From Deinococcales bacterium (GTDB lineage Bacteria > Deinococcota > Deinococci > Deinococcales > JAAFIG01): a stretch of 12,694 nt of DNA. Below are positions 1,747 through 12,233 of the stretch, in pieces. Position 1 is the first letter of the stretch; the number at the start of each line of letters is the position of its first letter. The translations under genes were made by a program, and so were the position numbers. Location of the stretch: the NCBI GenBank assembly GCA_013298185.1, contig JAAFJQ010000110.1, positions 1-12,694 of the forward strand, read 5' to 3'. The notes beneath the pieces are model-generated. The model was not told where the DNA came from, made no database searches, and was given only the letters and a program-made list of their open reading frames with translations.

Positions 1747-1799
1747 TTGGTTTATTCTAGCGGTTTTTGTGTAACCAGAAAATGCGGATTAATTGCAGA

Positions 1800-1973
1800 T
1801 TACTTTTTGCCGTACAATTGCAAACCAACTCGCCGCAAGGGGCAATTGTTGAACTTGCATTTTCTTCCATTGTTTCTGAGGGCGTTCAGTTCTGATTGGT
1901 TAAATCGTTCTTTGCATCGTGGACATTTTGTTTTTGAATCCAGACTAAACCATTCTAAAATTCTTGTCAGCAT
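1800..1973 (-). CDS. Small Cys4 zinc-ribbon protein, copy 1 (57 aa), putative phage-type regulator
   Basis: Below the 60-aa cutoff of the ORF track. ATG at 1973..1971 is preceded by GAGG with a 7-nt spacer (minus-strand gaggtaatccaATG), and the TAA stop is at 1802..1800. Product: MLTRILEWFSLDSKTKCPRCKERFNQSELNALRNNGRKCKFNNCPLRRVGLQLYGKK, with a CxxC-x18-CxxxxC pattern. It is 75 percent identical to the copy at 9378-9557. The differences include multi-nucleotide synonymous changes in this frame (Arg CGA/AGG, Leu CTG/TTA, Arg AGA/CGA). Confidence 0.8.
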   Translation of the reverse strand: MLTRILEWFSLDSKTKCPRCKERFNQSELNALRNNGRKCKFNNCPLRRVGLQLYGKK

Positions 1974-1998
1974 TGGATTACCTCAAGAAGCATTCCAT

Positions 1999-2026
1999 AT
2001 TTTACCAATGTTTTAAGTTTTGTAAA
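1999..2026 (-). promoter_or_regulatory. Predicted sigma70-like promoter for zinc-ribbon gene copy 1
   Basis: The minus strand reads TTTACA, a 16-nt spacer, then TAAAAT (+2026..2021 and +2004..1999), about 25 nt upstream of the ATG at 1973. This is a pattern match only. Confidence 0.35.
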
Positions 2027-2080
2027 GTTTTGAGCATGGAGATGATTCAAAAATCTCCGAATTTGAATTGAGCTAATCTA

Positions 2081-2098
2081 TACTTACGTTATGGTTAA
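2081..2098. repeat. 18-bp exact direct repeat TACTTACGTTATGGTTAA, left copy (candidate recombination core, attL-like)
   Basis: Identical to 9786-9803, and the flanking sequence on both sides is unrelated. It contains the ATG (2091) of the first phage ORF. Confidence 0.6.
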
Positions 2099-2333
2099 GG
2101 TAACAAAGTTTAACGCTCCATGCGTAAAACACGAAAATCTTAACACTTTACGACTTGCAAGTATTGAAACGAAATACAATGTTGAAATTGCTTTTTTTAT
2201 GCTTGCTCCACATGTTCCTGATAGGTTTATTGCCTTTGCATTTTCCAGTAAAGGTAAGTATCTAGTCCGTTCTGAGTCTGCTCGAGTCACTTTAAACCTT
2301 CTTGAATCACTTCTTTTAGGGGTGATTTCGTGA
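2091..2333 (+). CDS. Hypothetical protein (80 aa as integrated); possibly the 3' part of a gene split by integration
   Basis: The ORF has no SD upstream of its ATG, and that ATG lies inside the 18-bp repeat. Its stop overlaps the next start (GTGA at 2330-2333). It is in frame with the 21-codon ORF 9742-9807 across the repeat. Confidence 0.4.
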   Translation: MVKVTKFNAPCVKHENLNTLRLASIETKYNVEIAFFMLAPHVPDRFIAFAFSSKGKYLVRSESARVTLNLLESLLLGVIS

Positions 2334-2560
2334 AGCTACCTTCTTTAGGTCTAAGCAAGAGAAAGACACTCCTTAGCCGAACAGTCGCCCTTAATCGCTC
2401 AATCACAGTGCTTTCCCACTTAGACACATCACTCCTGTCGCAAACCCAAAAGCGAAAAGTATCCAAAAAAATTTCCTACCTTAAAGTAAAATACACTGTT
2501 CTCAACTCTGCTTTCGAACGTTCAAGAACACTTGAAACCCTCACAAAAGGGGTGTTTTGA
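2330..2560 (+). CDS. Hypothetical basic protein (76 aa)
   Basis: GTG start overlaps the upstream stop (GTGA), and its stop overlaps the next ATG (TGATGA). It is rich in K, R, S and T. I recognise no family. Confidence 0.4.
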   Translation: MKLPSLGLSKRKTLLSRTVALNRSITVLSHLDTSLLSQTQKRKVSKKISYLKVKYTVLNSAFERSRTLETLTKGVF

Positions 2561-2730
2561 TGACCTGCAAAGATTACCCACATTACTGCCGTATTGACTT
2601 GGCTTATGAGCGTTTACGCTACTTTCAGCTTAACAATCGTTTACCAAAAGAAACTAATGCTGCTATTACATATAAACTTATTACCCTTCGTTCTGCCATT
2701 GATCTTTTTGATGTATGGAGGAAAAAGTGA
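2560..2730 (+). CDS. Hypothetical protein (56 aa), not in ORF track
   Basis: ATG 2560 overlaps the preceding stop, and the TGA at 2728-2730 overlaps the GTG at 2727 of the Rep gene (GTGA). Product: MTCKDYPHYCRIDLAYERLRYFQLNNRLPKETNAAITYKLITLRSAIDLFDVWRKK. The only support is the chain of coupled starts and stops. Confidence 0.35.
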   Translation: MTCKDYPHYCRIDLAYERLRYFQLNNRLPKETNAAITYKLITLRSAIDLFDVWRKK

Positions 2731-4043
2731 CTCCTGTCACTGTTGGTCTTGGATGGTTACGGTTCACAACTCGAGGTATTCAAAACAACCAGCATATACA
2801 GCAGCTTCTGCAACTTCCCAGCAAACTCGAGTTTACAAAATGCCCCTCGTTGTTCAGGGGTTTTTACCCGTCCAAGGCTGTCGTGTACTTTGAGAGCTAC
2901 ACCATTACCATTGCCACTGACGGACATCGCACATACTGGGACATTCCACAAACCCACTGTCAGCTTCTTGGTGAGGCTGCACTCCGAGAGGTCGCCTTGT
3001 ACGCTCGAGATCGTTCCGCCGCAACATTTGGACGAGTTGACCCATATTTCCACGTTCCTAGAACGTCACTCACAATAAATAAAGTTATGCGCGATACAAA
3101 GCAAGGACGTGTTGTAACTCGCATCCGAGAAATCAAACCTCACCATGACATGGGGCAGCAGACTGGCTTAACCTTCGGCAAGCGTTCAAGTGATTTCTAC
3201 CTCCGAGTGTATGACGGCTATCTCGAGGCGCTTCAAAATAAACGAGACCCAGAGCAAAAAAATGTCATCGTCTTTGAGACAGAATTGAAGCATGACCGCT
3301 CAAACAATTTTGTAAACTATTGGCTCGAGAACGGTAATTTTGTCAAATCTGCTTCTGAGTTTCTTGTCAGCGCTGTTGACTTTCGCGCCAAGGATAACCA
3401 ACGCTCCAACCGCCGCACCCGCCTTTTTTGGTTTGAGTCCATCGTTGGTGGTGCTGCCAAAATCCAACAGCCTAAGAAGCCAGACTTAAAAACATATCTT
3501 GACCGCGCTGTTGATTGGCTGGACACCCAAGTTATGCCCACGCTGGGCGCTGTCGTAGCCCGTTACGGTCACGGCTGGCTGCTCGAGCAGTTGGCGACCA
3601 CCCTCCCCCGCTGGAGCGATAAGCAGTTCATCATATCGGGCAGAAACAAACAGTCTAGCCTGAGCATCAAAGAATACTTCAATGGCTCGAAACGCCAAGA
3701 AAAACACCGCTATGGCTTTGGCTGTGCCTCTGGCGAGTTTAACAGTGACTCACAATCAAAACAGACCTGTGTACCAAGCAACAAACGCATCAGCGGATAC
3801 ACACTTTTTGACAAAACTGGCACAAATTACCGTATCAAAGCCCAAACCCTCCTCCTCGAGACGTTTAAGGACGGGGGGGTATGTATTACCCCCCCTGTCA
3901 TGCCAGACCAAGCCGAAAAACAGCCGTCGTTCACGAGTCAAATTCTTAACACTAAATTTTGGTCAATTGGTTTTCTCCACCAGCTCGAGCTGCTTGAAAT
4001 TCCCAAGAACCAGTTTTTGACCTTGGCATTATCAACAGCTTAG
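2715..4043 (+). CDS. Rolling-circle replication initiation protein, Rep_trans-like (RstA / gII functional analogue)
   Basis: 442-aa ORF. Motifs GLGWLRFT near the N-terminus, FGKRSSDFYLRVYDG and VFETELKHDRS resemble replication initiation factor (Rep_trans) proteins of filamentous phages and RCR plasmids. The true start may be GTG 2727, which has GGAGG 5 nt upstream, rather than ATG 2715. The gene sits first in the phage string. Confidence 0.75.
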   Translation: MEEKVTPVTVGLGWLRFTTRGIQNNQHIQQLLQLPSKLEFTKCPSLFRGFYPSKAVVYFESYTITIATDGHRTYWDIPQTHCQLLGEAALREVALYARDRSAATFGRVDPYFHVPRTSLTINKVMRDTKQGRVVTRIREIKPHHDMGQQTGLTFGKRSSDFYLRVYDGYLEALQNKRDPEQKNVIVFETELKHDRSNNFVNYWLENGNFVKSASEFLVSAVDFRAKDNQRSNRRTRLFWFESIVGGAAKIQQPKKPDLKTYLDRAVDWLDTQVMPTLGAVVARYGHGWLLEQLATTLPRWSDKQFIISGRNKQSSLSIKEYFNGSKRQEKHRYGFGCASGEFNSDSQSKQTCVPSNKRISGYTLFDKTGTNYRIKAQTLLLETFKDGGVCITPPVMPDQAEKQPSFTSQILNTKFWSIGFLHQLELLEIPKNQFLTLALSTA

Positions 4044-4123
4044 TGAGAAATTTCGTAATTTACAAAAAAAACTAACTCAATTATCTTATCTCCAGCTTAA
4101 ACAGCTAAAGGAGATGTGAACGT

Positions 4124-4399
4124 ATGCGTGCAACGTTTCAAGGTACATTGGTTAGGATTTTTCAAAAGGAACAGACTCGAGATGGTGTTAAGTCTGTTAC
4201 ACCCACAGCTGAACTTTTGGTGGTCGGTACTGGCAATGCTTCTGGTAGCGAACTGGTTCAGGCTGCCATTGACCCATCCGCCGACATCGGCAAGTTAAAG
4301 ACAAACCTTGCCTACCAAGTGACGGCTGAGATAAAGGCTTGGGGCATGAATGGGCGCAGTGGTCTCAGCGTCAAAAACGCCACCTTCGCGGGGCTGTAA
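4124..4399 (+). CDS. Candidate ssDNA-binding protein (gV-like by size and position)
   Basis: 91-aa ORF immediately after Rep, with AGGAG upstream. Its size and position match inovirus gV. I cannot verify a diagnostic motif by eye. Confidence 0.45.
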   Translation: MRATFQGTLVRIFQKEQTRDGVKSVTPTAELLVVGTGNASGSELVQAAIDPSADIGKLKTNLAYQVTAEIKAWGMNGRSGLSVKNATFAGL

Positions 4400-4551
4400 T
4401 GTTTTTCAGGGTTCTCATTGGTTTGTGTATTGCCCTCTGGGTGGCAATTGTGGCGCGTGACGGCTACATCAGCCAATTTTCTGCTATGACTGCCATGGGG
4501 ATTGCCATATCCCTTTTGTTTTCACTGCTGAAGCATGGTCATGATGCTTAG
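4399..4551 (+). CDS. Small membrane protein (50 aa, two hydrophobic segments)
   Basis: ATG overlaps the stop of 4124-4399 (TAATG). Product: MFFRVLIGLCIALWVAIVARDGYISQFSAMTAMGIAISLLFSLLKHGHDA. The track ORF 4339-4551 is the same frame with an upstream start inside the previous gene. Confidence 0.5.
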   Translation: MFFRVLIGLCIALWVAIVARDGYISQFSAMTAMGIAISLLFSLLKHGHDA

Positions 4552-4801
4552 GTTGTTTGTCATTTGCATAGTTGCGTTTGGTTCTCTCGCATTCGCACAG
4601 CTACCCGAAACCCCTCAACCTCCTGTTAATTGTCTCACACAGCCCGAGTGTGACTTGTATATTGCCCAGCGCCTGTACGACCTCGAGAACCGAGAACGCA
4701 CTAACCCAGTCTGGTATGGCTCCGATTCTGGCAAATTTGTAGCTGCTATCTTCGTGTTTGCTGTCGGTTTTGCCCTTGGTCGCACAACCGCGTTGTTATG
4801 A
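4535..4801 (+). CDS. Secreted/membrane-anchored small protein (88 aa)
   Basis: N-terminal signal-peptide-like segment (LFVICIVAFGSLAFA/QL) and a C-terminal hydrophobic segment (FVAAIFVFAVGFALG). In-frame alternative ATGs are at 4541 and 4544. Confidence 0.5.
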   Translation: MVMMLRLFVICIVAFGSLAFAQLPETPQPPVNCLTQPECDLYIAQRLYDLENRERTNPVWYGSDSGKFVAAIFVFAVGFALGRTTALL

Positions 4802-4808
4802 GGTTCAA

Positions 4809-4928
4809 ATGATTGAATCTGTTCATAATCTTGTATTAACTACTGTTGGCGTACTCGTTCCCTGCATCATCGCACTTGTGAGTTATGCAGTGATTGCAGC
4901 AACAGCCGATGAGGTTTCGCGTGAATGA
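4809..4928 (+). CDS. Small single-pass membrane protein (39 aa), minor-coat-like (gVII/gIX size class)
   Basis: Not in the ORF track. GAGG lies 5 nt upstream of ATG 4809. Product: MIESVHNLVLTTVGVLVPCIIALVSYAVIAATADEVSRE. Confidence 0.45.
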   Translation: MIESVHNLVLTTVGVLVPCIIALVSYAVIAATADEVSRE

Positions 4929-5031
4929 CCAACAGTTTTTAGCAAGTTTGTTCATTGCTGGTGTGATTTTTGGTGCTATCTCGGGCGCATTGCAAACCAT
5001 TGTTCGTGCTTACAGGGGTCGCCGTGGCTGA
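4921..5031 (+). CDS. Small single-pass membrane protein (36 aa) with basic C-terminus, minor-coat-like
   Basis: Not in the ORF track. GTG start has GAGG 6 nt upstream and overlaps the previous ORF by 8 nt. Product: (M)NDQQFLASLFIAGVIFGAISGALQTIVRAYRGRRG. Confidence 0.4.
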   Translation: MNDQQFLASLFIAGVIFGAISGALQTIVRAYRGRRG

Positions 5032-5161
5032 TATTTGGGATGGTGCTGCTGCACAAATTAGCGCTGGTGCTGTGCCAGTCTTTGCGATCCTCGCCGCTGT
5101 CCTGGTTATTTTCATTGTTTCAATGGTCGTCTGGGCAATCATCAGTAATACCAAGAAATAG
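5024..5161 (+). CDS. Coat-like protein without signal peptide (45 aa; acidic N-terminus, TM, KK tail)
   Basis: Same frame as track ORF 4970-5161. A GTG at 5024, preceded by AGGGG, overlaps the stop of the previous ORF. Product: (M)ADIWDGAAAQISAGAVPVFAILAAVLVIFIVSMVVWAIISNTKK. The layout is like leaderless inovirus coat proteins of the Pf3 type. Confidence 0.45.
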   Translation: MADIWDGAAAQISAGAVPVFAILAAVLVIFIVSMVVWAIISNTKK

Positions 5162-5205
5162 GGTTTTCCGCCCATCGTGGCGTAACCAACAAGGAGGCAA
5201 CTACC

Positions 5206-5433
5206 ATGTTGCAAAAAATTTATAAAAGCCGTCCTGCTCGTCTCGCCCTGACCCTTGCTGTCGTCGCTGCTGCAAACCTTGCACACGCGCAGGCAACACC
5301 ACCAGCAGCGTTTACTGAGACAAGCCTCAGTGGTGTTTTGGCAATCGTTCTCGCGTTTATCGGCGTTGGTGTATCCATCGCCTTGGCGATGACGATTTTC
5401 AAAGTCGGCAAACGCGCTCAGAACAAGGTCTAA
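5206..5433 (+). CDS. Major coat protein candidate (gVIII-like) with signal peptide
   Basis: Strongest SD in the window (AAGGAGG, 8-nt spacer). The signal peptide MLQKIYKSRPARLALTLAVVAAANLAHA is followed by a mature part of about 47 aa. That part has a neutral/acidic N-terminus, the hydrophobic core GVLAIVLAFIGVGVSIALAMTIF and the basic tail KVGKRAQNKV. A hairpin terminator follows directly, as after gVIII in Ff phages. Confidence 0.75.
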   Translation: MLQKIYKSRPARLALTLAVVAAANLAHAQATPPAAFTETSLSGVLAIVLAFIGVGVSIALAMTIFKVGKRAQNKV

Positions 5434-5446
5434 ACAGCCGAGTATT

Positions 5447-5484
5447 CAGACCGCTATCTTTTGTTTAGCGGTCTGATTTCATTT
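5447..5484 (+). terminator. Rho-independent-type terminator after the major coat gene
   Basis: Perfect 10-bp stem CAGACCGCTA/TAGCGGTCTG (5447-5456 and 5466-5475) with a 9-nt loop, followed by the T-rich ATTTCATTT. Confidence 0.6.
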
Positions 5485-5495
5485 AGGGGTGAATT

Positions 5496-5621
5496 ATGGA
5501 ACAAATAAACGGCATGATGTGGATGTTTGCAGTAGCACTTGGTCTTACTGCTGCCGTCATTGTTGGCGGCGTTTCACTTTATTTCTGGCTCAAGAAAAAG
5601 GGAAGAGAGGAGGGCTATTAA
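5496..5621 (+). CDS. Small single-pass membrane protein (41 aa)
   Basis: Not in the ORF track. GGGG lies upstream of ATG 5496. Product: MEQINGMMWMFAVALGLTAAVIVGGVSLYFWLKKKGREEGY. Its stop overlaps the next start (TAATG). Confidence 0.45.
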   Translation: MEQINGMMWMFAVALGLTAAVIVGGVSLYFWLKKKGREEGY

Positions 5622-5752
5622 TGGACCAAATCATTGCTGTCATCATTGACTTAGGTACTAAGGTTGGTCAAGCTCGAGACGCACTCTTTGTTATCCTTGG
5701 TGTGCTGCTCGTCATTGGTGTTACTTGGGCGATTGCCAACAGGGTAAAATAA
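5621..5752 (+). CDS. Small single-pass membrane protein (43 aa), coat-like layout
   Basis: In-frame internal ATG of track ORF 5489-5752, preceded by AGAGGAGG and coupled to the previous stop. Product: MDQIIAVIIDLGTKVGQARDALFVILGVLLVIGVTWAIANRVK. Confidence 0.45.
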   Translation: MDQIIAVIIDLGTKVGQARDALFVILGVLLVIGVTWAIANRVK

Positions 5753-7413
5753 TGAAATACTTTGTTATTCTGGCATTACTTTTATTTTCCTCTGTTCAAG
5801 CTCAAGGTGCTGATTCGTCTTTGTCAAAAGCTGCAATAGGTGTAGGCATCATGAGCGCTGCAACTGGTCAAGCTATGATCCAGACAGGCGCTCAAATTGC
5901 TGTCCAAACTGGCAACCTTGTAAGGTTTGGCGGTCTAGTCACTGTTGCTGCTGGTGCAATCCCTCTAGCTTTAAACTGGTTTTATGATGAACTGAAACGT
6001 CAGACAGGAACTAGCCTTGATGATTGGCACCGTCTTGCCGGTACCCCTTCATATGCAGCATATGCTACAAAATTTTGGTTTCTTTCCGCCCCTTCCTTCT
6101 TCTGGGAAGGTACTCAATATTATGCTTGTTATCAACAGCGGTCGCATGGGCCACAAAAGTCTGGTATGGGTACCGAATCTCGATTTATGGGCAACGGCTT
6201 TACTAGCTCAGGTTGTCCAACTGACTCAGAAGTTGGCTACGATCCAAGTATTTTGGGTAACATTGGCGGGTGTGCTGGTTCTTACACATGGGTCAATTAT
6301 TCAGCATCTGGGACTAATAACTCTGGTCAAACTGTGCAAATATCTTATGCCTTACGGTGTAATGCTTTGGTTCAAATGCCTCTTTTAAACTGGATTGATG
6401 GTAATTACGTTAATCCTGACGGTTCATCAGGAACACCGCACCCTGATGCACTTTCAGCAATTCTGCAACAAATCCTTCCTCAGTGGTTAAACTCCCGCCC
6501 ACTCCCCTTGAGTAGAACACAGTTAGCGCCGTTTGTCACCCTGTCACCAACTCCGAACACAAATCAGTGGTTAGACTCTATTTCAGACAATACTTTAGAC
6601 TCTGATGGTGATGGTTTTACTGACCGCGATGAGTACGATAATAACAGCGATTTAAACAATTCCTCAGTGTTTCCTGTTCGTTGTGGTCAAAATCTTTTTT
6701 CTCCAAATACCAACTGCAACGACACAATAAATCGAGATACCGATGCAGACGGTTTCACCGATGATGAAGAACTTAACCCTCAAAATTATTCCCGCTTACA
6801 ACCTATCCCAAGTAATCCCCAAGACCCCAATAGTAGACCAACACTACGCCCTCTAACAGAAGCTTGCCCTAACCCCACTGACGTTAGAGTTAATGGTCAG
6901 TGCCAGCCACCAGCCCTAACGTGTCAGGCTGGCTTCTCCCTTGTGTCTGGTCGCTGTGTACCTAATGTCTGCCCTGTTGGTCAAAATCTTGAGCGTGGTG
7001 TATGTGTTCCTGATACAACTCCTGACGCTTCTGCAATTAACACACCCTGCGATGCTATGCAAGGTGGCAGTGGCGTAGTTGGCTTTGTTGTTAATTTTTT
7101 TCCAAACCTCATGCACCTGACAAAGTGCCTGTTCATACCAACTGTAGACATTAGTTCCAAAGTCTCCCAACTTCAAGCCCAAACCACTACAAAATTTCCC
7201 TTTTCAATTTCAGCACAGTTAAATTCCGCCTTCAGGTCACCCACCGCAACCGCTTCAGCGTCGCCTCTCCCAGCTCGAGCTGGTGACATTCCTTTGGACT
7301 GGTCGCCCATTGCTCCCTTTCTGCAAATTGCAAAATCTGTTATTGGTACGTTTATTTGGTTTTCCGCTCTTTGGTTTATCGTTCGTAAAATCACGCCACA
7401 GGTGACAGTATGA
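5752..7413 (+). CDS. Adsorption / minor coat protein candidate (gIII-like), 553 aa
   Basis: ATG 5752 overlaps the upstream stop (TAATG); the track start 5725 lies inside the previous ORF. It has a signal peptide (MKYFVILALLLFSSVQA/QG) and two DxDxDGxxDxxE/D motifs (DSDGDGFTDRDEYD, DTDADGFTDDEE). It also has three Cys-pair repeats and a C-terminal hydrophobic anchor (VIGTFIWFSALWFIV). Its position after the coat gene matches gIII. Confidence 0.65.
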   Translation: MKYFVILALLLFSSVQAQGADSSLSKAAIGVGIMSAATGQAMIQTGAQIAVQTGNLVRFGGLVTVAAGAIPLALNWFYDELKRQTGTSLDDWHRLAGTPSYAAYATKFWFLSAPSFFWEGTQYYACYQQRSHGPQKSGMGTESRFMGNGFTSSGCPTDSEVGYDPSILGNIGGCAGSYTWVNYSASGTNNSGQTVQISYALRCNALVQMPLLNWIDGNYVNPDGSSGTPHPDALSAILQQILPQWLNSRPLPLSRTQLAPFVTLSPTPNTNQWLDSISDNTLDSDGDGFTDRDEYDNNSDLNNSSVFPVRCGQNLFSPNTNCNDTINRDTDADGFTDDEELNPQNYSRLQPIPSNPQDPNSRPTLRPLTEACPNPTDVRVNGQCQPPALTCQAGFSLVSGRCVPNVCPVGQNLERGVCVPDTTPDASAINTPCDAMQGGSGVVGFVVNFFPNLMHLTKCLFIPTVDISSKVSQLQAQTTTKFPFSISAQLNSAFRSPTATASASPLPARAGDIPLDWSPIAPFLQIAKSVIGTFIWFSALWFIVRKITPQVTV

Positions 7414-7643
7414 TAACTGATGCTCTCCTTAATGTTCTTTTTTCTGTCCTAGGCGCTGTTATCTCTATCTTCCCAACATACACAATCCCTCAAGGACCCG
7501 GCTTTTCGGCAATAGCTGCTGCTAACATAATTATCCCGCTTGATATATGGTTTTTTTGGCTTGGTGTGACAATTACCTTTACTGGCATTGGTCTGATTTA
7601 TTACGGTGTCCTGCTTATCATTAGGCTTATAAGAGGAGCATGA
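7410..7643 (+). CDS. Polytopic small membrane protein (77 aa), gVI-like by position
   Basis: ATGA overlap with the upstream stop. Two to three hydrophobic segments. It lies between the gIII-like and ATPase genes, as in Ff. Confidence 0.5.
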   Translation: MITDALLNVLFSVLGAVISIFPTYTIPQGPGFSAIAAANIIIPLDIWFFWLGVTITFTGIGLIYYGVLLIIRLIRGA

Positions 7644-7644
7644 A

Positions 7645-8544
7645 ATGACAATCTTTAAAGCGCTTTCCCCTGCGTTGGCGGCACAAAACTACACTTTATC
7701 TCATGATGGTAAACTGCATCTCCTTGAGGCTCGGCGTGGTCGTGGCAAGAGCTACATTTTAGCTGAATGGGCTATGGCTGCCTTTTCTGCTGGCATCCCT
7801 GTTCGCGCAAACTTTGACTTAGATTTATATTGGTTTGCCCTCGAGTTGGTGAAGCAAAAAAAGCATAAGACACTGGTTTCAGCCGTCGACTGGCTGCGTT
7901 CTAACTACAAGCGTATTGACTCTTGGGATGATCTCTTAACCTGCTATGACACATTAGTATTACTTGATGAAGTAAACAGAACTTTTGATTCTCGAGTACG
8001 TGGCAATGCTGGCGCTCCAATGGTTGCACATTCTTGGCTTCAACAGTCGCGCAAGTTGAAAAACACCATGGTGTTCGCTGCTCAGGGTTTTGATTGGCTG
8101 GATGTTCGCTTGCGTCAGCTCTTCGATATGCTTTGGCGTGTAAAACGTGTTGATGTGCCTCGTACTCGAGTACCTGATACTTTTATCGCCTATGGCTCTG
8201 ACCCTTGGTCATCTGGCTTAGACTCTGATGCTGTTAGGCGTTGTGACTATAAATTCAGAGTAAAATTCTCAACCCAACGCTCGCGGCGATACAATACTTT
8301 TGAGATTATAAAGTCTCTTGTTGGTGAGCCGTCTTTCTCAAATATTCAGGATGTTATCCAGTCTCTTATTGATGCTCGACTTTGTCGGTATGCCACTTAC
8401 AAGCCAACCCCTGATACCATCCCACTCGTGGACAAAATTGCTAGGCTCGAGCCTGCTGAAAATTACTCCCATCGTGGCGCGTTTGACTATGCCTTCTCTT
8501 CTGAATACTCTGCCCCACTGACCCACGCTGGTTCAGAGTTCTAA
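7645..8544 (+). CDS. Zot / pI-like morphogenesis ATPase (P-loop NTPase)
   Basis: AGAGGAG SD lies 6 nt upstream. Walker A ARRGRGKS is near residue 30 and Walker B LVLLDEV is near residue 105. Its position corresponds to gI. I saw no transmembrane segment in the 299 aa. Confidence 0.65.
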   Translation: MTIFKALSPALAAQNYTLSHDGKLHLLEARRGRGKSYILAEWAMAAFSAGIPVRANFDLDLYWFALELVKQKKHKTLVSAVDWLRSNYKRIDSWDDLLTCYDTLVLLDEVNRTFDSRVRGNAGAPMVAHSWLQQSRKLKNTMVFAAQGFDWLDVRLRQLFDMLWRVKRVDVPRTRVPDTFIAYGSDPWSSGLDSDAVRRCDYKFRVKFSTQRSRRYNTFEIIKSLVGEPSFSNIQDVIQSLIDARLCRYATYKPTPDTIPLVDKIARLEPAENYSHRGAFDYAFSSEYSAPLTHAGSEF

Positions 8545-8563
8545 ACGCAATGCGCCTCGGCGC

Positions 8564-8761
8564 ATGAAGTTAGAACCTGAACCGCGTATAATCTTGCCTA
8601 TGTTATTTTGGATTGGTGCATTTTTTGCAATTTTTTTTGGCTCTCTAATTTTCTTCTCGAGATTCCTCGACTTTATCGCTTTGATGATGCTTGCATTGAC
8701 CCACCTGTTAATTTTCTATTGCGCTATAATGGCAGCGTCAAAACATGATAAGCAGCCGTAA
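8564..8761 (+). CDS. Small 2-TM membrane protein (65 aa), possibly the membrane part of a split pI
   Basis: Two clear hydrophobic helices (ILPMLFWIGAFFAIFFGSLIFF and FIALMMLALTHLLIFYCAIMAA). No SD upstream, and the ATG is embedded in a small GC hairpin (ATGCGCC TC GGCGCAT). Confidence 0.4.
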   Translation: MKLEPEPRIILPMLFWIGAFFAIFFGSLIFFSRFLDFIALMMLALTHLLIFYCAIMAASKHDKQP

Positions 8762-8856
8762 AACCCGCCACACAACGCCACAGACCATGTTTTAACCCAA
8801 GGTATCCTAACACCTAAAACCACTTACTCAAGCCTTACTTTTCATTTCAGAGATAG

Positions 8857-8942
8857 GTTTATTTTATGCGTCTGTCACAACATAAACAAAAAAATAAAGT
8901 TTATTTTAGCAGAAAAATAAAGCATAAAAATACATAAAAATA
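8857..8942. repeat. AT-rich short-repeat block with phased A-tracts (candidate origin / bent DNA)
   Basis: GTTTATTTTA occurs at 8857 and 8899. AAAAATAAAG occurs at 8890 and 8913. CATAAAAATA is tandemly duplicated at 8923-8942. The block lies in the 617-bp non-coding gap 8762-9377. Confidence 0.5.
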
Positions 8943-9284
8943 ACCTACCCCCACAAAATAAAAAATGCAACCCTAAACCTCTGTTGGGTTTTTGCTTTTT
9001 TGCTCGAGGTCTTAGCTTTTGCTCACATTCTCTTGATCTAAGTCTTTATTCTCATTTTCTGACTTTTTTTGCACCTCTGAACTCTTGCGCGTAGTGTAGC
9101 CCCGTAGGTGGCGAAACGTAGCGCGTGACCGTTGCATTGACATCCCTATCGTGTATTTGCACAACGTATTACTACCTTTTTCTGTTTACGTGTATTTTCT
9201 GGTTTTCCGAGTCTGTTTTGACTCTTTAGCGTCATTTTTTAGCAGACGAAACTTTGCCAGACCGGCGGCGAGCTGGCGAGCCGA

Positions 9285-9311
9285 TTACCTCGAGTGTTTT
9301 CCTCGAGGTAA
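9285..9311. repeat. 10-bp inverted repeat built on two CTCGAG sites
   Basis: TTACCTCGAG tgttttc CTCGAGGTAA (9285-9294 and 9302-9311), in non-coding DNA 67 nt downstream of the zinc-ribbon copy 2 stop on the minus strand. Confidence 0.6.
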
Positions 9312-9377
9312 AGGTCTGGGGTTTCAAAGGTTCGGCGCGTTCCTAAATCCTGATCCATTTTCCCTAACAATTCTAAC

Positions 9378-9557
9378 TTATTTCTTTGACTTACTATACA
9401 AATGTAAACCAACACGCCCCATAGGACAATTATTGAATTTGCACTGTCGTCCGTTGTTCCTCAGTGCGCCTAGCTCGGCTTCGTTAAACCGTTCTTTGCA
9501 CCTCGGGCATTTTGTTCTTGAGTCTAAGTTCAACCATTCTAAAATTTTTTGTAGCAT
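9378..9557 (-). CDS. Small Cys4 zinc-ribbon protein, copy 2 (59 aa)
   Basis: Not in the ORF track. ATG at 9557..9555 and TAA stop at 9380..9378. Product: MLQKILEWLNLDSRTKCPRCKERFNEAELGALRNNGRQCKFNNCPMGRVGLHLYSKSKK. It aligns without gaps to copy 1, with all four Cys conserved. The SD is weaker (GGTGAG, 3-nt spacer). Confidence 0.75.
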   Translation of the reverse strand: MLQKILEWLNLDSRTKCPRCKERFNEAELGALRNNGRQCKFNNCPMGRVGLHLYSKSKK

Positions 9558-9581
9558 TTGCTCACCACGCGAAAAAAATCT

Positions 9582-9610
9582 ATGTTACTCTCACAATAAC
9601 AACGTCTCAA
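9582..9610 (-). promoter_or_regulatory. Predicted promoter for zinc-ribbon copy 2, back-to-back with a possible rightward promoter
   Basis: The minus strand reads TTGAGA, a 17-nt spacer, then TAACAT (+9610..9605 and +9587..9582). On the plus strand, TTGAAT (9613-9618), a 17-nt spacer and TAGTTT could drive rightward transcription. These are pattern matches only. Confidence 0.3.
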
Positions 9611-9741
9611 GCGTTGAATTTCTTCACACTTCGGGTTAGTTTTAGTTTGCCCCCGTTGCTGTCGAAGTTGGCGGGGGTCGCTTCATTTCTGTCTCAAGCA
9701 GAAAGAGCAATTTCAAACCCACGTTGTTTTAAGGAGAAACC

Positions 9742-9807
9742 ATGGGCAAGGCAGATATTAGCACACTTTTACCGCGTGAAACACTTACTTACGTTATGGT
9801 TAAATAA
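9742..9807 (+). CDS. 21-codon ORF with strong SD; likely the 5' part of the phage gene split by integration
   Basis: AAGGAG lies 5 nt upstream of ATG 9742. Product: MGKADISTLLPRETLTYVMVK, then stop. Its last codons run through the 18-bp repeat in the same frame as ORF 2091-2333. Confidence 0.4.
   Translation: MGKADISTLLPRETLTYVMVK
9786..9803. repeat. 18-bp exact direct repeat TACTTACGTTATGGTTAA, right copy (attR-like)
   Basis: Identical to 2081-2098, with unrelated flanks on both sides. Confidence 0.6.
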
Positions 9808-9833
9808 GAAATCTATGTTATACTGATTTCAGG

Positions 9834-10388
9834 ATGAGTTTAGAACAAAAATGTAACCACTGCATGAATACGTTCCCAGCCACGACTGAATTTTTTCGAG
9901 CAAGGAGTCGTGGCAGAGGACTTGAGAAGGTTTGTAAGGCATGTTGGCGAGAGAAAATTCGCGCCTATAGGCAAGTTAAATGTCAACATGGTGAACGAGA
10001 AGTGAATCCTCGGAGACAAGAAATCAGAACGTATCTTGATGAGATTAAATTGTCTCGAGGTTGCACCAAATGCGGCTATAAAGAACATCCTGCTGCATTG
10101 GATTTTCATCATCTATCACAACAGGACAAGGTCGCAACCATAGCCTCGCTTTATTCAACTCTAAACCTACAAAAAATCCTAGCCGAAGTTGCAAAGTGTG
10201 AAGTCTTATGTGCCAACTGCCATAGAATTGAAACGTACCATCAAAAGCATCCATTAAAGCCTGAAAAGCCAGTGGAACAAACCGTATTGATACGGGCTTC
10301 ACAGCATTTCAAAAAGCGAAAATCGAGAAAGAATACAAATAACCAAACCAGCCTATTTCAAAATAACATTGGAGACTTAAATCAATGA
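9834..10388 (+). CDS. HNH endonuclease
   Basis: 184-aa ORF with N-terminal Cys pairs (CNHC ... CKAC). It carries the C-terminal signature GCTKCGYKEHPAALDFHHL ... KCEVLCANCHRIETY, typical of phage-associated HNH nucleases. There is no obvious SD, and a TATACT box lies 9 nt upstream of the ATG. Confidence 0.8.
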   Translation: MSLEQKCNHCMNTFPATTEFFRARSRGRGLEKVCKACWREKIRAYRQVKCQHGEREVNPRRQEIRTYLDEIKLSRGCTKCGYKEHPAALDFHHLSQQDKVATIASLYSTLNLQKILAEVAKCEVLCANCHRIETYHQKHPLKPEKPVEQTVLIRASQHFKKRKSRKNTNNQTSLFQNNIGDLNQ

Positions 10389-11437
10389 GCTATGAACTTA
10401 TCCTGTCTAGTAAGTTCCAAGCTCCAGAAAATCGCAAGCGCGAAGCTGTTCGTGCAGCTCACGACCACGACGAGGCAACGCTGCTCGAGTTGTTAAATCA
10501 TTACTTGACATTAAAAAGCTCTCGCAAATCCCAAACCTCAAACGAGACTCGTCTTTTGTACAGTGCAGCCGTCAAACGTTTTCTCGAGTATTGCGCTAAG
10601 AACTCAAATCGTCTCGAAATCACCCGACTCGAGAGTGATGACCTTGAAATGTGGTTGGTTTATTTACAAGCTGAGGGCTTAAAACCTTTGAGTATCACAG
10701 CTTACTTGAATGGAGTGCGTTGCCTGTACCGCGCTCTGATTTGGGCAAAGGCTGCTACCATCAACCCAGCAGCCGAAGTTAAAGCCCCAAGGGATCCCAC
10801 ACCAGCCCATTTGAAAAAATCGGCGCTCTCCCCTGCCCTGTACCGCGAACTTGTATCTGCCCCACTCGAGAAATACGCCCCTGACGACCCGCGCCGAACT
10901 CGAGATGGCTTGCTGATCGCACTTGGCGGCTCAGGCGGTTTGCGAGCTAAGGAAATCATCAGCTTGGATGTCACGGATGTGGAGATCGCCTTAAAGCGGT
11001 TGACAGTTCAAAGTGGTAAAGGCGGAAAGAAACGCATTGTACCCTTATCCAACGAATTACTTTCACTCCTGAAATCTTGGCTCGAGGTTCGGCGCAGTCT
11101 CGAGTTGATGGGTGAAATATCGCCAACCGAGACGGCTTTGATTGTCAGCATCTCGAGAAATGCTTCGCATGGACGGCGCTTAACCACCCACGGTGCAAGG
11201 TTTATTGCCAAGGGGTATTACGTGGCGGCTGGACTTCCCTCTGAAATGTGGGGCTTGCACACGCTGCGGCGCACGGCTGGAACGCACCTGTACAGAGCAA
11301 CCAAGGATTTGCACGTTGTAGCAGATTTGCTGGGACATGCCAGTGTCAATACCTCTGCGATTTATGCCAAGATGGACATGGAAACCCGCCGTGATGCTCT
11401 CGAGAAAATGGAAAAAATGCGCGATGAACTCGAGTAG
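10385..11437 (+). CDS. Tyrosine recombinase / phage integrase (XerC/XerD-like)
   Basis: 350-aa ORF. The start overlaps the HNH stop (ATGA). It has an N-terminal SAM-like core-binding region. The catalytic residues occur in order: GGLRAKE (Arg), GKGGKKR (Lys), HTLRRTAGTH (His-x-x-Arg), LLGHASVNTSAIYAKM (His, Tyr). It carries 10 CTCGAG sites. Confidence 0.9.
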   Translation: MSYELILSSKFQAPENRKREAVRAAHDHDEATLLELLNHYLTLKSSRKSQTSNETRLLYSAAVKRFLEYCAKNSNRLEITRLESDDLEMWLVYLQAEGLKPLSITAYLNGVRCLYRALIWAKAATINPAAEVKAPRDPTPAHLKKSALSPALYRELVSAPLEKYAPDDPRRTRDGLLIALGGSGGLRAKEIISLDVTDVEIALKRLTVQSGKGGKKRIVPLSNELLSLLKSWLEVRRSLELMGEISPTETALIVSISRNASHGRRLTTHGARFIAKGYYVAAGLPSEMWGLHTLRRTAGTHLYRATKDLHVVADLLGHASVNTSAIYAKMDMETRRDALEKMEKMRDELE

Positions 11438-12118: not shown

Positions 12119-12233
12119 CACTCCCCCTCGCTTCGCTCGACCCCTCAAAGAGGGGTGCAAAGAGCCAGTTCAAGTGCCAAGGTTTTTAGTCCCCCTCTTT
12201 GAGGGGGAACGCGAGGCACGAGCGTGGGGAGTG
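12119..12233. repeat. Imperfect long inverted repeat with nested GC palindromes (REP/MITE-like intergenic element)
   Basis: The outer arms are CACTCCCC (12119-12126) and GGGGAGTG (12226-12233). CCCCTCAAAGAGGGG (12141-12155) is mirrored by CCCCCTCTTTGAGGGGG (12191-12207). It lies between the SHOCT gene and the response regulator. Confidence 0.6.

Follow-up and report, generated by a model that had tools for sequence, protein, structure and literature searches.

The late-gene activators Ogr of P2 and Delta of P4 (PF04606) are small phage proteins having four cysteines spaced as CX2CX22CX4C. XafT, a protein with a helix-turn-helix (HTH) and DUF3653, is encoded by TLCphi and by Vibrio inoviruses of the CTX-I type, which have no integrase and rely on a host Xer enzyme and whose repeated integrations leave several copies of the gene by the attachment (att) site (PMC6744903, PMC12715192). 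In the CTX-I inoviruses of Vibrio, xafT comes last among the genes, runs opposite to zot, and adjoins the attP-derived end, and it forms part of a conserved lysogeny module (PMC12715192). An integrase-less phage at a dif-like site and next to a relic shows the pattern of Xer-exploiting elements (PMC6744903), and a recombination site linked to a single Xer-like gene is reported as the hallmark of XerS/difSL (PMC2731167). Here we describe two small genes from a 12,694-nt contig of a Deinococcales bacterium (GCA_013298185.1, JAAFJQ010000110.1, forward strand; hereafter the window). The minus-strand open reading frames (ORFs) at 1800-1973 and 9378-9557 were named ZR1 and ZR2, and each encodes a four-Cys protein; ZR2 lies in an integrated filamentous phage, and ZR1 in what is best read as the relic of an earlier element. 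The best explanation overall, to which we assign a probability of roughly one half, is that these are real Cys4 genes brought by elements inserting at one dif-like site, and that ZR acts as a lysogeny-module regulator.

Two diverged minus-strand genes for four-Cys proteins

The two genes had been noticed in an initial annotation of the window as an ungapped repeat of about 75% identity between 1800-1973 and 9378-9557, with minus-strand ORFs of 57 and 59 residues that share 43 of 57 amino acids and all four cysteines. A repeat search of the window recovered the ungapped repeat as 1813-1989 against 9397-9573 (177 nt, 75% identity), and with an overall nucleotide identity of 73-75%, translation and alignment upheld this description. 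Within the coding region 125 of 171 nucleotides are identical, leaving 46 differences, and the 43/57 identical residues correspond to 75% amino acid identity. The residues C17, C20, C39, and C44 are kept in both proteins with the CX2CX18CX4C spacing originally given, and the core KCPRCKERFN…CKFNNCP is identical in the two. Both proteins are basic, with 13-14 Lys and Arg versus 4-5 Asp and Glu residues and an isoelectric point (pI) near 10. When wider regions were aligned with MAFFT, the similarity was found to set in at both stop codons (1800/9378) and to decay about 16 nt 5' of the ATGs; past this point upstream of the genes, only an 18-bp core, TACTTACGTTATGGTTAA, matches again.

The TTTACA-16-TAAAAT promoter match and the GAGG Shine-Dalgarno (SD) sequence initially ascribed to ZR1 are both present as pattern matches, the GAGG lying 7 nt 5' of the ATG. 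For ZR2, a consensus scan gave a weak promoter match on the minus strand (9610 to 9582). The gene finder left ZR1 uncalled on a public Logan contig (L005, 1349-1522). Both of these overlooked small genes were recovered by comparing the diverged repeat.

Long plus-strand ORFs at 1633-2016 and 9151-9639, which had also been pointed out, do exist and are open across the repeat. The repeat might accordingly be part of these ORFs, or a non-coding repeat or RNA, with no gene on the minus strand. The initial case for the minus strand had rested on the substitutions, including multi-nucleotide synonymous swaps, which are present at codon 19 (CGA to AGG), codon 11 (CTG to TTA), and codon 37 (AGA to CGA). 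Differences per codon position in the minus frame number 12/6/28, and the proportions of nonsynonymous and synonymous differences are pN 0.125 and pS 0.82, the latter saturated. The antisense frame having the same third positions, the one read by the long plus ORFs, has no stop in either copy and likewise gives a low ratio (pN 0.159, pS 0.68), and therefore the substitution pattern alone favors the minus frame only modestly. The direction of the earlier argument stands, in that second-position changes number 6 in the minus frame versus 12 in the plus frame, but its strength does not, since a low ratio of nonsynonymous to synonymous change in both frames separates the strands weakly. Amino acid identity is 43/57 in the minus frame versus 38/55 in the plus frame. 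The edges of the repeat match the minus ORF, whereas the plus ORFs run far into unrelated sequence, one of them overlapping the start of the NamZ gene. In 20,000 trials in which the 46 differences were placed at random, identical residues reached a maximum of 37 and never 43, and 91% of the placements produced a stop codon.

A full HMMER scan of 1.84 billion representative proteins yielded a single clear relative, P0121 (56 aa, E=4e-12), and a profile search added a second 56-aa homologue, P0123. Relatives with conserved cysteines, on which the initial annotation had made its proposal depend, do therefore exist in other metagenomes. The two are about 50% identical to the ZR proteins and are called as genes, on the same strand, in two independent metagenomes. 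Both retain W8, D12, CPRC, RFN, EL, ALR, GR, CK, CP, and GL, and the four cysteines are invariant in all four sequences, which are 45-75% identical; the spacing in P0121 and P0123 is CX2CX18CX5C. Compared with each other, the homologues gave pN 0.139 and pS 0.695. Each has a stop codon in the antisense frame that the window leaves open. Because the homologues share the frame and the four cysteines, with a stop in the antisense frame, the minus-strand genes are real, and ZR1 and ZR2 are protein-coding genes under purifying selection. That the repeat should instead belong to the plus ORFs is highly improbable, and the same is true of an RNA: no Rfam family matches the window, and the transcripts folded no better than shuffled sequences (z = 0.1 and -0.2).

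The contigs carrying the chromosomal homologues have 57-58% GC and the same extreme excess of CTCGAG as the window, and hence we place them in a related lineage. A -10-like element, TACACT or TACAAT, lies 7 nt 5' of the ATG of each homologue in a leaderless-type arrangement. Otherwise the family is scarcely represented. A word-indexed protein search with ZR2 returned no match, exact look-ups of ZR1, ZR2, and the phage Rep protein gave no record, and neither ZR protein is present in a collection of 15 billion proteins. Two metagenome-contig scans for ZR and tblastn of ZR against the PLSDB plasmids likewise returned nothing. Two candidates were rejected: L001, from a genome-contig scan, is an unrelated 246-aa multi-zinc-ribbon protein with only TKCPRCKE in common, and P0122 (280 aa, E=6.5e-4) has a repeated C2HC-type motif and resembles ZR at the motif level only. 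The ZR family is rare among called proteins, is unnamed, and has chromosomal and phage-borne members, so far only in this CTCGAG-rich lineage of Deinococcota.

Attachment site, prophage, and probable relic

The initial annotation had assigned one copy of the repeat to a phage, and examination of the 7.7-kb element that carries ZR2 bore this out (Table 1). Because it encodes Rep_trans, coat, and Zot proteins, lacks a recombinase, and has the 18-bp repeats at its ends, the element is taken to be an integrated filamentous phage; with a rolling-circle Rep, a major coat protein, a Zot-type ATPase, and a size within about 5-10 kb, it is an inovirus. Several further small (membrane) proteins are encoded, and no integrase or recombinase domain was found in any phage ORF with Pfam or PHROGs. 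Having no recombinase of its own, an att resembling the host site, and insertion at that site, the phage also has the features of an IMEX (an integrative mobile element that exploits Xer). ZR2 is its terminal gene, located 830 bp after zot and transcribed leftward, opposite to zot. In the circular phage, ZR2 would be divergent from ORF80-ORF76-Rep, with attP between them. No close relatives of the phage were found among deposited phages or IMG/VR contigs, viral-contig scans for close relatives of Rep and of the host recombinase described below gave nothing, and tblastn of Rep and Zot against phages produced only remote Rep matches. A 17-mer of the att core occurs in five viral contigs by chance; these have 34-40% GC, no CTCGAG, and no protein similarity.

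The attachment site itself is dif-like. By inspection, the full site has an 11-6-11 organization in which the inner ends of the arms are inverted repeats. The right arm contributed by the phage, GGTAACAAAGT, is degenerate and matches the host arm ATAAGAAATCT at only 4/11 positions. In five related genomes, including the window, the site lies directly 5' of a recombinase operon. In three of these (L006, L008, and L009, with recombinases 85-91% identical) the NamZ gene is 82-115 bp from the operon with the site between, and neither a ZR gene nor a phage was found in these intergenic regions. In L006 the empty site, TACTTACGTTATGGCTAAATAAGAAATCT, lies about 37 nt away from the start of NamZ, and that of L008 reads, by inspection, ACTTACGTTTC-TTTCAG-TAAACGAATCT. 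In L020 a different insert, with an HbpS-like gene and no ZR1, lies to the left of the site, which is still directly upstream of the operon. The DNA left of the site thus varies from NamZ directly, to the HbpS-like gene, to the relic and phage of the window, which points to a hot spot for insertion that is linked with the recombinase gene.

The initial annotation had placed the other copy of the repeat, ZR1, in a resident module of the host, and the empty sites of L006, L008, and L009 contradict this. The window matches L006 up to position 1763 (…TCTAGCGG) and again from 9786, so that about 1764 to 9785 is extra DNA, the first ~335 bp of which contain ZR1; about 19 nt of the ancestral left flank of the host and one copy of the left core are missing from the window. 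Because three relatives have NamZ 82-115 bp from the operon with no ZR gene, ZR1 would be a relic, and the segment from about 1764 to 2098 is most readily taken for the att-proximal end of an element that came earlier rather than for a resident host gene. One might still suppose that ZR1 is an ancestral gene of the NamZ-xer intergenic region, lost in the relatives, from which the phage captured its copy: ZR1 has a good promoter and SD match, it is oriented like NamZ, and the family has chromosomal members elsewhere. Yet the gene is absent in four relatives (L006, L008, L009, and L020), in three of which only ~37 nt separate the NamZ start from the site, the ~19 nt of ancestral flank are lost exactly where the ZR1 segment starts, and at its other end the segment has a copy of the att core. 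It is also devoid of CTCGAG as compared with ~7/kb in host DNA, a weak argument at 335 bp. We therefore hold a host origin of ZR1 to be very unlikely.

The simplest order of events would be as follows. An earlier element whose ZR gene adjoined its attP would have integrated, and the present phage would then have integrated at one of the resulting cores. Deletion of the earlier element, from the left flank of the host to just past the ZR1 stop codon, would have left the relic, whose att core may have been the entry point for the present phage or may have survived its integration. The ZR regions are unrelated outside the ORF, indicating that the two elements were already well diverged. A Logan contig from the same project, L002, has the first base of the att core as its own first base, which would be compatible with polymorphism of the junction in the population.

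The 350-aa Xer-like tyrosine recombinase of the host operon, which matches PF00589 in Pfam and is also matched in PHROGs, is the presumed integrase used by the phage. Its homologues are chromosomal proteins annotated as Xer across Deinococcales and Deinococcus. In NCBIfam it falls below every Xer equivalog cut-off (143 bits versus 335 for XerC, TIGR02224; 83 versus 267 for XerS). The HNH-like gene that precedes it encodes N-terminal CxxC pairs and has an ATGA overlap with the start of the recombinase gene. L008, L009, and L020 also have it; L006 lacks it, the recombinase there directly following the site. An exact 12-mer, AAATCTATGTTA, occurs at 9576-9587, just upstream of ZR2 in the phage, and at 9809-9820, in the host right arm and flank overlapping the likely promoter of the recombinase operon. 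The match extends to 14/15 over 15 nt, and there is no other exact copy in the window. The 12-mer may be a shared binding site.

Table 1. Coordinates of the ZR genes, the attachment sites, and the surrounding features (window positions unless a contig is named).
Feature	Position	Strand	Description
ZR1	1800-1973	-	57 aa, pI 10.2, Cys4, basic; inside relic; 108 bp from att core
ZR2	9378-9557	-	59 aa, pI 9.9, Cys4, basic; last gene of prophage; 229 bp from attR core
Candidate ZR1 expression signals	1981-2026	-	TTTACA-16-TAAAAT (2026 to 1999; 10/12, with TG); GAGG (1984-1981)
Chromosomal ZR homologues	L012 1020-1190; L014 1788-1958		Between Lon-N-domain gene and DUF2268 gene
Relic of earlier element (putative)	~1764-2098		~335 bp; ZR1, its upstream region, and one att core; absent from empty sites of relatives
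attL core	2081-2098	+	TACTTACGTTATGGTTAA, exact 18-bp direct repeat; left arm and 6-bp central region, then phage arm GGTAACAAAGT
attR	9786-9814	+	18-bp core (9786-9803) and host right arm
Full dif-like site	9787-9814		ACTTACGTTAT-GGTTAA-ATAAGAAATCT, 11-6-11 by inspection
dif-like site in related genomes (ACTTACGTT… / …AATCT)	Window 9787-9814; L006 9920-9950; L008 6018-6050; L009 9410-9445; L020 9550-9585
Integrated inovirus	2099-9785	+	7.7 kb; Pfam and PHROGs matches; exact 18-bp repeats (2081-2098, 9786-9803) at ends
ORF80	2091-2333		80 aa; first phage ORF; ATG within 18-bp core
ORF76			After ORF80, before Rep
Rep_trans initiator	2715-4043		PF02486, 7.8e-18
Major coat protein	5206-5433		phrog_6548, 2e-05
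Adsorption-type protein	5725-7413		562 aa; followed by a 77-aa protein
Zot-type ATPase	7645-8544		PF05707 Zot, 8.3e-06, above its cut-off
Membrane protein			65 aa; follows zot; then 830-bp gene-poor stretch, then ZR2
Phage intergenic region, ZR2 to attP	9558-9785		Weak ZR2 promoter match; 12-mer AAATCTATGTTA (9576-9587); short hairpins
Host operon	9834-11437	+	HNH-like protein, 184 aa (9834-10388); Xer-like tyrosine recombinase, 350 aa (10385-11437)

Other features of the phage and its surroundings were noted. The gene-poor stretch at 8762-9377 could hold an origin or packaging region, or a terminator of ZR2. An A-rich tract lies near 8860-8970 and the DNA fold z-score is -1.8; a perfect hairpin composed of two CTCGAG sites, TACCTCGAG-N7-CTCGAGGTA, is found at ~9284-9310. 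Since the ATG of ORF80 lies inside the 18-bp core, the crossover sets what that start codon reads into, and at the attR copy (9796-9807) it meets a stop after three codons (ATGGTTAAATAA). The left arm of the att site, ATACTTACGTT (2080-2090), has an inverted copy 160 nt into the phage, AAGGTAAGTAT (2251-2261), that is 10/11 complementary to it. This inverted copy is reminiscent of the attP of CTXphi, which is folded single-stranded DNA.

CTCGAG occurs 58 times in the window versus 2.6 expected, in every codon phase as well as between genes, and encodes 29 of the 36 Leu-Glu dipeptides. The host flanks have a density of ~7.4/kb and the prophage one of ~2.7/kb, the 335-bp relic has none, and in related contigs (loci L002-L014) the density is 5-9/kb, even at 57% GC. 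The excess represents a lineage-wide iterated palindrome. Downstream of a SHOCT-domain gene, at 12130-12217, is a 37-nt inverted repeat (73% complementary, 14-nt loop) rich in CCCCTC/GAGGGG.

Possible roles of the ZR proteins

Judging from its sequence, ZR is probably a zinc-binding four-Cys protein, and likeliest a small DNA-binding regulator of the lysogeny module. The initial annotation had proposed either a regulator or a recombination directionality factor, and both are plausible. We infer zinc binding, DNA binding, and a regulatory role alike. The regulator is favored because of the charge of the protein, the position of its gene, the retention of an att-proximal ZR by two diverged elements, and the parallel with xafT in Vibrio. 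The divergent orientation relative to the Rep operon and the knuckle and helix predicted at low confidence would also suit a regulator. As we envisage it, in the circular phage the transcription of ZR and of the early/replication operon (ORF80-ORF76-Rep) would diverge from the intergenic region in which attP lies. There ZR would bind DNA through the zinc finger and the helix at residues 26-35, and would act on the divergent early/replication promoter in repression or immunity. It may additionally modulate the Xer reaction at the adjacent site. ZR1 might have stayed intact as a trans-acting regulator that is still useful, or simply because the deletion is recent.

Assignment to a known family was sought with hmmscan against Pfam-A. 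At E<=1, ZR matched only IBR_1, DUF5817, Zf_2nd_IFT121, zf_UBZ, and HTH_29, all of them below their cut-offs. PF04606, the search proposed in the initial annotation, gave no match to ZR1 or ZR2 at this threshold, nor to P0121 or P0123, and there was no ZR match to DUF3653 in Pfam at E<=1. Excisionase and directionality-factor families (Xis, AlpA/HTH_17, and others) were absent from the Pfam, PHROGs, and NCBIfam scans. Searching the ZR sequence against the PDB returned nothing significant, and hhalign of the ZR profile against the CxxC…CxxC region at the N terminus of the HNH-like protein gave a probability of 0.9%, which is not significant. The AlphaFold2 models, which are of low confidence and unusable for fold assignment, suggest an N-terminal helix, a hairpin or knuckle around CPRC, and the helix at 26-35.

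A number of results weigh against regulation of the phage by ZR. In Pfam, PHROGs, NCBIfam, and the PDB sequence search, ZR matched no DNA-binding, repressor, excisionase, or Xer-factor family. The pLDDT scores of the AlphaFold2 models were as low as 49.0 (2 sequences) and 56.8 (4 sequences), and Foldseek of the ZR model against the PDB found nothing at E<1. No operator-like motif shared by the regions upstream of ZR1 and ZR2 emerged from MAFFT or from a repeat search, and the promoter matches near both genes are pattern matches only, no commoner than in shuffled sequence. Viral-contig scans and tblastn against INPHARED phages revealed no other phage carrying ZR, the only tblastn match being to a Methanosarcina virus at E=0.2. 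Finally, the non-phage homologues are chromosomal, located between a Lon-N-domain (LON_substr_bdg) gene and the gene of a DUF2268 predicted protease, with no phage or recombinase nearby. As these are the only other members, the ancestral role of ZR may be unrelated to phage regulation.

The chromosomal setting raises the prospect that ZR is a host-derived accessory gene, or moron, acting on a host pathway of the Lon-N-domain/DUF2268 neighborhood rather than on phage transcription or recombination. The same arrangement is seen in two diverged contigs, each with the -10-like element before the ATG, and accessory cargo is known to concentrate at the zot-to-att termini of inoviruses (PMC12715192). 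Being neighbors in two short contigs is nonetheless weak evidence of a functional link. Moreover, two independently diverged elements, ~75% identical in nucleotides within the ORF and with unrelated flanks, have kept ZR att-proximal, which suggests a core function in the lysogeny module over random cargo. We regard the accessory-gene explanation as doubtful.

ZR might alternatively serve as a factor in Xer activation or directionality, an analogue of XafT from a different superfamily that contacts the recombinase or the degenerate phage arm and so licenses recombination of attP with the dif-like site. The phage has no recombinase. Its attP and the host site have the left arm and central region in common, the right arm of attP matching at 4/11 positions, like the poor XerD arm of the TLC attP (PMC6744903). 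The position of ZR2, terminal, opposite zot, and adjoining att, is that of xafT in CTX-I inoviruses (PMC12715192), and the two ZR copies by two att cores recall the multiple DUF3653 copies by dif after serial integrations (PMC6744903). The exact 12-mer common to the ZR2 upstream region and the host right arm and flank could be added to these points. On the other side, ZR has no similarity to DUF3653 or to XafT otherwise, its chromosomal homologues have no recombinase or att-like site nearby, the positional analogy is drawn from proteobacterial XerCD systems with two recombinases, and the score of the 350-aa enzyme falls well short of the XerC and XerD cut-offs. Both the degenerate phage arm and the gene position fit a Xer factor as well as they do a lysogeny-module regulator. 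The Xer factor is the less likely of the two, and for one reason only: nothing ties the chromosomal homologues to recombination. We consider it possible, if on balance unlikely. An extension of this idea, in which ZR is a new class of zinc-finger cofactor unrelated to DUF3653 that enables a filamentous phage of Deinococcales to take over a single Xer-like recombinase with its dif-like site immediately 5' of its own gene, and in which the intact ZR1 relic still influences recombination or immunity, seems rather improbable to us.

In an inovirus of Deinococcota that is otherwise undescribed, and in an earlier relic, the ZR genes hold the att-proximal position. For a Xer-exploiting phage outside the Proteobacteria, they are therefore the obvious candidates for the regulatory or recombination-accessory component that is missing. 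If ZR were indeed a Xer cofactor, such factors would have arisen more than once, whereas if it were a repressor or cargo, it would be an ordinary orphan phage gene. What is new is an unnamed family of small proteins in a familiar genomic role.

Comparison with known systems

Like Ogr and Delta, to which the initial annotation had likened them, the ZR proteins are small, phage-encoded, and have four cysteines as CX2C…CX4C. The link was nevertheless abandoned. Besides the lack of a PF04606 match, the spacing between the cysteine pairs is X18 (X18/X5 in the chromosomal homologues) and not X22, and the element carrying ZR2 is a filamentous inovirus without late operons of the P2 type. RstR-type repressors, known from CTXphi, have an HTH and are encoded at the other end of the prophage. 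As with these, ZR2 is divergent from the replication module and by the attachment region, and diverged alleles in adjacent members of an array would fit heteroimmunity (PMC12715192). ZR differs from RstR in having no HTH and in lying at the opposite end of the prophage, and the operator search was negative.

With respect to its context rather than to ZR itself, the locus resembles XerS/difSL in having a 28-bp 11-6-11 site directly 5' of the recombinase operon in five related genomes. It differs in the recombinase, which scores 83 bits against the XerS cut-off of 267. Compared to XafT, the ZR proteins have four cysteines in 57-59 aa and no DUF3653 or HTH match, and the surrounding system differs in having a Deinococcales host and a Xer-like gene physically linked to the site. 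The likeness to XafT lies in the arrangement: ZR2 is small, and it is located at the end of an integrated, integrase-less element, by a dif-like att and opposite to zot.

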